Shown here: piece after piece, positions 1 through 248 of the stretch
How positions within the stretch are numbered: the stretch's first letter is position 1
How the letters are laid out: each line of letters begins with the position of its first letter
Assembly (NCBI RefSeq): GCF_003334785.1
Contig: NZ_QOWV01000092.1
Length of the DNA stretch: 248 nucleotides
DNA from: Escherichia coli
Lineage (GTDB): Bacteria; Pseudomonadota; Gammaproteobacteria; Enterobacterales; Enterobacteriaceae
Direction: 5' to 3' (one strand)
Notes under the pieces: generated by a model
The model's input: only the letters and a program-made list of their open reading frames with translations
Databases searched by the model: none
Told to the model about the DNA's origin: nothing
Made by a program: the position numbers and the translations under genes

Positions 1-248
1 TTTCATCTCCAGCTTTTCCAGAACAAGCTTTCGCAATGGTAAATTTTGATCCAGTAAGCACGGTTTTGGCCTTTTCGCCATTCTGTTGGCTCGGTTATTA
101 GCATCAACAGCTTTGTAATAGCGTCTGCCCCGATTACGCTGAACTTCACGTGAGATCGTCGAAGGACTGCGATTCAGCGCAGTAGCTATCGCACGAATGC
201 TCATTTTGGCTGACAAACCAGCTCGTATCTCCTCGCGCTCAGACAGTG
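1..248 (-). CDS. insI: IS30-family transposase (InsI-like), internal fragment, partial at both ends. Codons occupy plus-strand 1-246 read on the minus strand; 247-248 are the last two bases of the preceding codon. The start codon lies beyond position 248 and the stop codon beyond position 1.
   Basis: Seen in sequence: the reverse complement read from its third base gives 82 codons with no stop. Plus-strand frame 1 stops at taa 40-42, frame 2 at tga 47-49, and frame 3 at tag 99-101. Established knowledge (recalled, not aligned): the peptide matches the N-terminal region of E. coli IS30 transposase InsI, roughly residues 60-142 of the ~383-aa protein, with no mismatches I can detect from memory. 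Confidence 0.92.
1..248 (-). mobile_element. Internal segment of an IS30-family insertion sequence (IS30 itself or a near-identical relative). Terminal inverted repeats and target-site duplications are not in the window.
   Basis: Inference from the CDS call: the IS30 transposase gene fills most of the ~1.2-kb element, so a window wholly inside the transposase gene is wholly inside the IS. No IS ends are visible to confirm whether the element is complete. Confidence 0.88.
133..201 (-). other. Helix-turn-helix DNA-binding motif within the transposase N-terminal domain (peptide SIRAIATALNRSPSTISREVQRN).
   Basis: Seen in sequence: a short amphipathic helix-like stretch (SIRAIATALN), a turn (RSPS), and a second basic stretch (TISREVQRN). 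Established knowledge: IS30 transposases carry N-terminal HTH motifs used for recognising the inverted repeats and target sites. Exact motif boundaries are my estimate, not a domain-search result. Confidence 0.6.

Follow-up and report, generated by a model that had tools for sequence, protein, structure and literature searches.

A 248-nt internal slice of the IS30 transposase gene insI in Escherichia coli, and what its identity can say about the copy that carries it

IS30 and its described relatives

The insertion sequence IS30, whose characterisation dates back to the 1980s and which about two thirds of complete E. coli genomes carry, is the closest described system for the sequence considered here, a 248-nt stretch of E. 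coli DNA that is referred to throughout as “the window”. The reference used for comparison is the annotated copy IS30A of E. coli K-12 MG1655 (NC_000913.3 270541-271761), with the transposase gene insI1/b0256. The reference element is 1221 bp long, and its 26-bp ends, which pair at 23 of 26 positions, are TGTAGATTCAATTGGTCAACGCAACA at one end and the imperfect inverse TGTTGCATTGACAGATTGAATCTACA at the other. In K-12 the element has “AC” on both sides, as a 2-bp duplication. By the ISfinder convention, sequences are treated as the same IS or as isoforms when their DNA identity is at least roughly 95%.

In the mechanism proposed for a complete element, the helix-turn-helix (HTH) of IS30-family transposases would recognise the terminal inverted repeats, with the transposase binding the 26-bp repeats of IS30; the C-terminal DDE (rve) domain would join the ends to give an IR-IR junction, in the form of a circle or a tandem dimer; and in the last step the element would be inserted with a 2-bp target duplication. 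Two motifs, HTH1 and H-HTH2, have reportedly been mapped in the N-terminus of InsI. A related element of the IS30 family, ISApl1, which mobilises mcr-1, resembles IS30 in its N-terminal HTH that binds the inverted repeats, its C-terminal DDE domain, its circular or junction intermediate and its 2-bp duplication; the HTH domain of its transposase binds both IRL and IRR in EMSA, and circle formation requires the DDE residues (PMC10916398). ISApl1 differs from IS30 in being a separate and much shorter sequence, with a coding region of 927 bp. IS30 itself makes (IS30)2 tandems with junction promoters (PMC9330008).

Identity and parts of the window

Six-frame translation of the window yields a single open frame, frame -3 of the minus strand, which runs from window position 246 to position 1 through 82 codons with 0 stops and translates as LSEREEIRAGLSAKMSIRAIATALNRSPSTISREVQRNRGRRYYKAVDANNRANRMAKRPKPCLLDQNLPLRKLVLEKLEMK; the remaining five frames contain 2-6 stops apiece. 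An open frame is weak evidence when it is taken alone, the probability that 82 open codons arise from the base composition being about 0.01 for a given frame and about 0.06 for any of the six, and the identity of the window is settled instead by its exact match to IS30. When reverse-complemented, the window is found letter for letter in K-12 MG1655 IS30A, where it occupies nt 241-488 of the element (20% of its length) and nt 179-426 of the insI1 CDS. In a search of complete E. coli genomes the IS30 match has an E-value of 4e-126, which excludes chance. The alignment to reference IS30 that an initial annotation of this DNA had proposed as a check gives identity at 248/248 nt, and the translation equals InsI residues 61-142 with 0 differences, so that IS30A and the window are identical over 248 nt and 82 codons. 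That annotation had described the frame as intact over 82 codons, with no frameshift or stop, had reported no amino-acid differences from K-12 InsI, and had estimated that about a fifth of the gene is visible; the translation and the comparison with the reference bear out all of this, the visible fraction being 82/383 codons, or 21%. It had given no strand; in the orientation of the window the gene is on the minus strand. Taken together, the matches indicate that the window is almost certainly an internal slice of IS30, presented on the strand opposite to the transposase gene insI, and no observation speaks against this. The sequence is one that is already known, the internal part of IS30 insI, and the annotation found under the 100% matches, in thousands of RefSeq records, is “IS30-like element IS30 family transposase”.

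The 82 complete codons of the window, insI codons 61-142, occupy positions 1..246 (minus strand), which correspond to IS30 nt 243-488 and match K-12 IS30A/insI1 exactly, and positions 247..248 (minus strand) hold the second and third bases of codon 60 (Thr), as given by the phase within the K-12 CDS. The portion at 133..246 (minus strand) encodes InsI residues 61-98, the greater part of the conserved Pfam HTH_38 helix-turn-helix: the match covers residues 1-38 of the window peptide and positions 7-44 of the 44 in the model (E = 5.1e-17), and in full reference InsI the same domain extends over residues 58-98 (E = 1.3e-18). The portion at 1..132 (minus strand) encodes residues 99-142, which form a basic stretch that separates the HTH motif from the catalytic core. 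A second Pfam domain, HTH_32, is matched weakly by full InsI at residues 90-173 (E = 0.0013). The NCBIfam family model NF033563 (transpos_IS30), which begins at InsI residue 89, aligns with residues 29-79 of the window peptide over model positions 1-50 of 267, with a score of 21.7 bits (E = 1.4e-4); this score is under the cutoff of 80 bits, which is set for the whole protein, because only these positions, a fifth of the model, are present in the window, and full reference InsI scores 277 bits. The rve (integrase-core) domain of full InsI (Pfam, residues 229-320) lies outside the window, and so do D237, D293 and E327, the DDE motif residues in reference InsI, none of which falls within residues 61-142; in the DDE core of the family about 33 residues separate the second D from the E. 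On these domain assignments the window is predicted to encode the conserved DNA-binding HTH and the subsequent basic segment, and none of the catalytic core. A PDB sequence search with full InsI returned no structural relatives at E up to 0.01.

Two further ORFs can be read in the window, a 48-aa GTG ORF on the minus strand at 3-149 and a 21-aa ORF on the plus strand at 36-101; both were set aside as out-of-frame by-products of the insI sequence.

The rest of the element would be found on either side of the window. IS30 nt 1-240, which contain the left repeat, the promoter and the start codon, correspond to the 240 nt beyond window position 248, and IS30 nt 489-1221, which contain the DDE triad, the stop codon and the right repeat, correspond to the 733 nt before window position 1. 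Because the promoter, the DDE domain and both inverted repeats are all outside it, the window is silent on activity.

Copies that share the window and the state of this one

Of the 5,426 complete E. coli genomes, 3,532 contain matches to the window, at 7,335 places in total. In 3,882 of the E. coli records with a match (3,928 in all) identity at the best place reaches 99% or more, in 46 it stays below 99%, and 50 of 60 rows spaced evenly down the E. coli ranking (about 83%) are 100% identical over the full length; in the sequences compared, the majority allele is exactly that of the window. The window is also present on 1,109 plasmid records from at least 10 genera, which include Escherichia, Citrobacter, Enterobacter, Klebsiella, Salmonella, Raoultella, Shigella, Aeromonas, Serratia, Leclercia and others. 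A search of the GenBank phage collection INPHARED (50,697 records) found no match and so gives no evidence for an origin in phage, and a 114-nt core of the window occurs exactly in 28 IMG/VR viral-contig loci. These loci have mostly isolate-genome style identifiers, and several come from one genome with many IS30 copies; IMG/VR loci with IS30 are probably prophage or misclassified chromosomal regions, not free phages.

The frequency with which a copy carrying the window is intact was evaluated in two samples, both of them small. The first consists of every fourth of the evenly spread 100% E. coli matches (H112-H160), which gives 13 records that were compared with IS30A together with 1.5 kb flanks. 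In this sample 9/13 copies extend over the full length of the element and have both 26-bp ends and the 383-codon ORF (Wilson 95% interval 42-87%); one of these intact copies, on a circular plasmid, runs through the point at which the record begins, and its annotation gives it as complete. The other 4/13 are truncated or frameshifted outside the window, and in them the window is still 100% identical: IS30 stops at nt 804 in L005 (O157:H7 E32511), at nt 690 in L006, where it adjoins an IS3-family element, and at nt 609 in L014, and in L008, a full-length copy, 2 bp are deleted immediately 3' of the start codon. Copies that stop at nt 609 or 690 adjoin sat/autotransporter loci. The second sample consists of 22 IMG/VR copies with the exact window that are uncut by the locus end, several of which share genomes and are not independent; 20/22 are full length with the 383-codon ORF, and 2/22 are defective: in L026 IS30 stops at nt 775, and in L043 an IS3-family element is inserted at nt 241-246.

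Full-length copies differ from IS30A at only 0-5 nt per 1221, so a 248-nt slice without a difference is expected for almost any copy, live or dead. Judged from the sampled sequences, E. coli IS30 copies decay by truncation, nested IS insertions and indels, not by substitutions, which means that an undiverged 248-nt slice cannot separate live copies from dead ones. Truncated E. coli remnants have the same sequence as the window in this region and keep the left inverted repeat and the 5' part of insI but, unlike complete IS30, have neither a DDE domain nor a right inverted repeat. Since copies in young, nearly invariant IS families are lost by these routes, identity over a short internal slice is in general no guide to whether a copy still lives; a live copy can be told from a dead one only with the full ORF and both ends in view.

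The initial annotation had taken the identity of the frame to K-12 InsI as the mark of a recent or potentially active copy. Its identification of IS30 insI stands, but the step from identity to recency or activity does not, since defective copies (4/13 and 2/22) share the window; its caveat that the intactness of the whole element was unproven was correct, with only 82/383 codons visible. A complete, transposition-competent IS30 (1221 bp, 383-codon insI and both repeats), newly arrived by transposition or horizontal transfer, is nevertheless the likely source of the window, as most copies with the exact window are full length with the ORF intact (9/13 and 20/22), and as copies separated by so few differences, some of them identical and carried on conjugative plasmids of many genera, combine a low divergence and a plasmid spread that both fit a recent expansion of the family as a whole. 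This reading is held back by the occurrence of the same 248 nt in the defective copies L005, L006, L008, L014, L026 and L043, and by the fact that an intact ORF is no proof of activity; the amino-acid changes A11T, P157S, S240L and V261L are found outside the window in several of the sampled copies. The copy is probably full length and ORF-intact, with base rates alone placing this between likely and very likely, and the estimate derives from the population base rate, not from anything in the window. A defective remnant that is 3' truncated, IS-interrupted or frameshifted outside the window, with an undiverged 5' portion, is an unlikely source, though one to be taken seriously: remnants with a 100% identical window are common (the truncations at nt 609, 690, 775 and 804, the deletion after the start codon and the insertion at nt 241-246), and while 3,751 E. 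coli records contain at least 80% of the window, a place covering at least 80% of the whole element is present in only 3,394; in both samples, however, remnants are outnumbered by intact copies. Should the copy be one of the recurrent 3'-truncated ones, in which the left end and promoter survive together with the DNA-binding N-terminal half of InsI but the DDE domain is lost, it might express a repeat-binding inhibitor of transposition, although such an outcome must be considered very improbable. Inhibitors of an analogous kind are IS1 InsA and the Tn5 inhibitor.

The relevant feature of the window could in principle lie not in insI but on the plus strand, as an antisense RNA or an overlapping gene, since that strand is antisense to insI, and an IS30 antisense RNA that reduces translation of the transposase is described by Arini et al. 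(1997), in the form in which that work is cited in PMC8450116 and PMC9330008. The antisense promoter, however, is placed at IS30 nt 730-760 (PMC9330008), which is outside the window, and all three plus-strand frames of the window contain 2-4 stops, with a longest ORF of 21 aa. A consensus scan found no promoter-like or terminator-like sites on either strand of the whole of IS30, and the window matched no Rfam family at E up to 1. A plus-strand feature is on this evidence barely credible, and the window continues to be read as a part of insI.

Insertion sites, breaks and alleles of other IS30 copies

Nearly every sampled copy (L001 and L003-L016) lies inside an IS3-family element, with fragments of IS911, IS600 or ISEc52 on both sides. 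The left flanks of the sampled copies end in ATATTAAAAAA(A/G)GCnnC, and the right flanks in L001, L009, L011, L012 and L013 begin with GTAGCCTTTTT(T)AATAT, which is the inverse complement of the left motif, with no 2-bp direct repeat; the flanks are located at 738-767 and 1989-2018 in L009 and at 2512-2541 in L002. The pattern points to a palindromic hot spot that lies in the A-rich frameshift region of IS3-family elements, with rearrangements afterwards.

Several copies are broken within or next to the region that corresponds to the window. In L043 (3327-5814) the insert is about 1.3 kb long and contains ORFs of 108 and 295 aa (NF033516), and IS30 nt 58-100 are missing as well. The break in this copy coincides with the edge of the window (nt 241), and further E. 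coli copies start at nt 245 (H97 and H167), so that the region near nt 241-245 may be a recurrent break point, or the agreement may be a coincidence. In L038 (8497-11405) IS30 is split between nt 465 and 466, within the region of the window, by an insert of about 1.7 kb. The copy in L016 (1427-1928, plasmid pLP5-1-106kb) has a 2-bp insertion in the window stretch and is truncated at nt 881; PGAP, instead of calling an IS30 pseudogene, labels one piece “helix-turn-helix domain-containing protein” and another “hypothetical protein”. In H91-H93, which are chromosomes of E. coli O157:H7 and related strains, the best IS30 place aligns as two pieces that together cover 96% of the element; a deletion of about 46-50 nt inside the element, common to these records, is implied. 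The copies in H168 and H169 have window positions 1-139 only.

The common InsI protein alleles are WP_001254938.1 and WP_001254932.1. The first of these, the Val261 allele of IS30A, is in the minority among the sampled copies, and the second, in which residue 261 is Leu (G843C, at IS30 nt 843), is found in most of them (L001, L003, L009-L013 and L015). The Leu261 copy of L001 comes from a K-12-derived strain, so the “K-12 InsI sequence” is not a single sequence.
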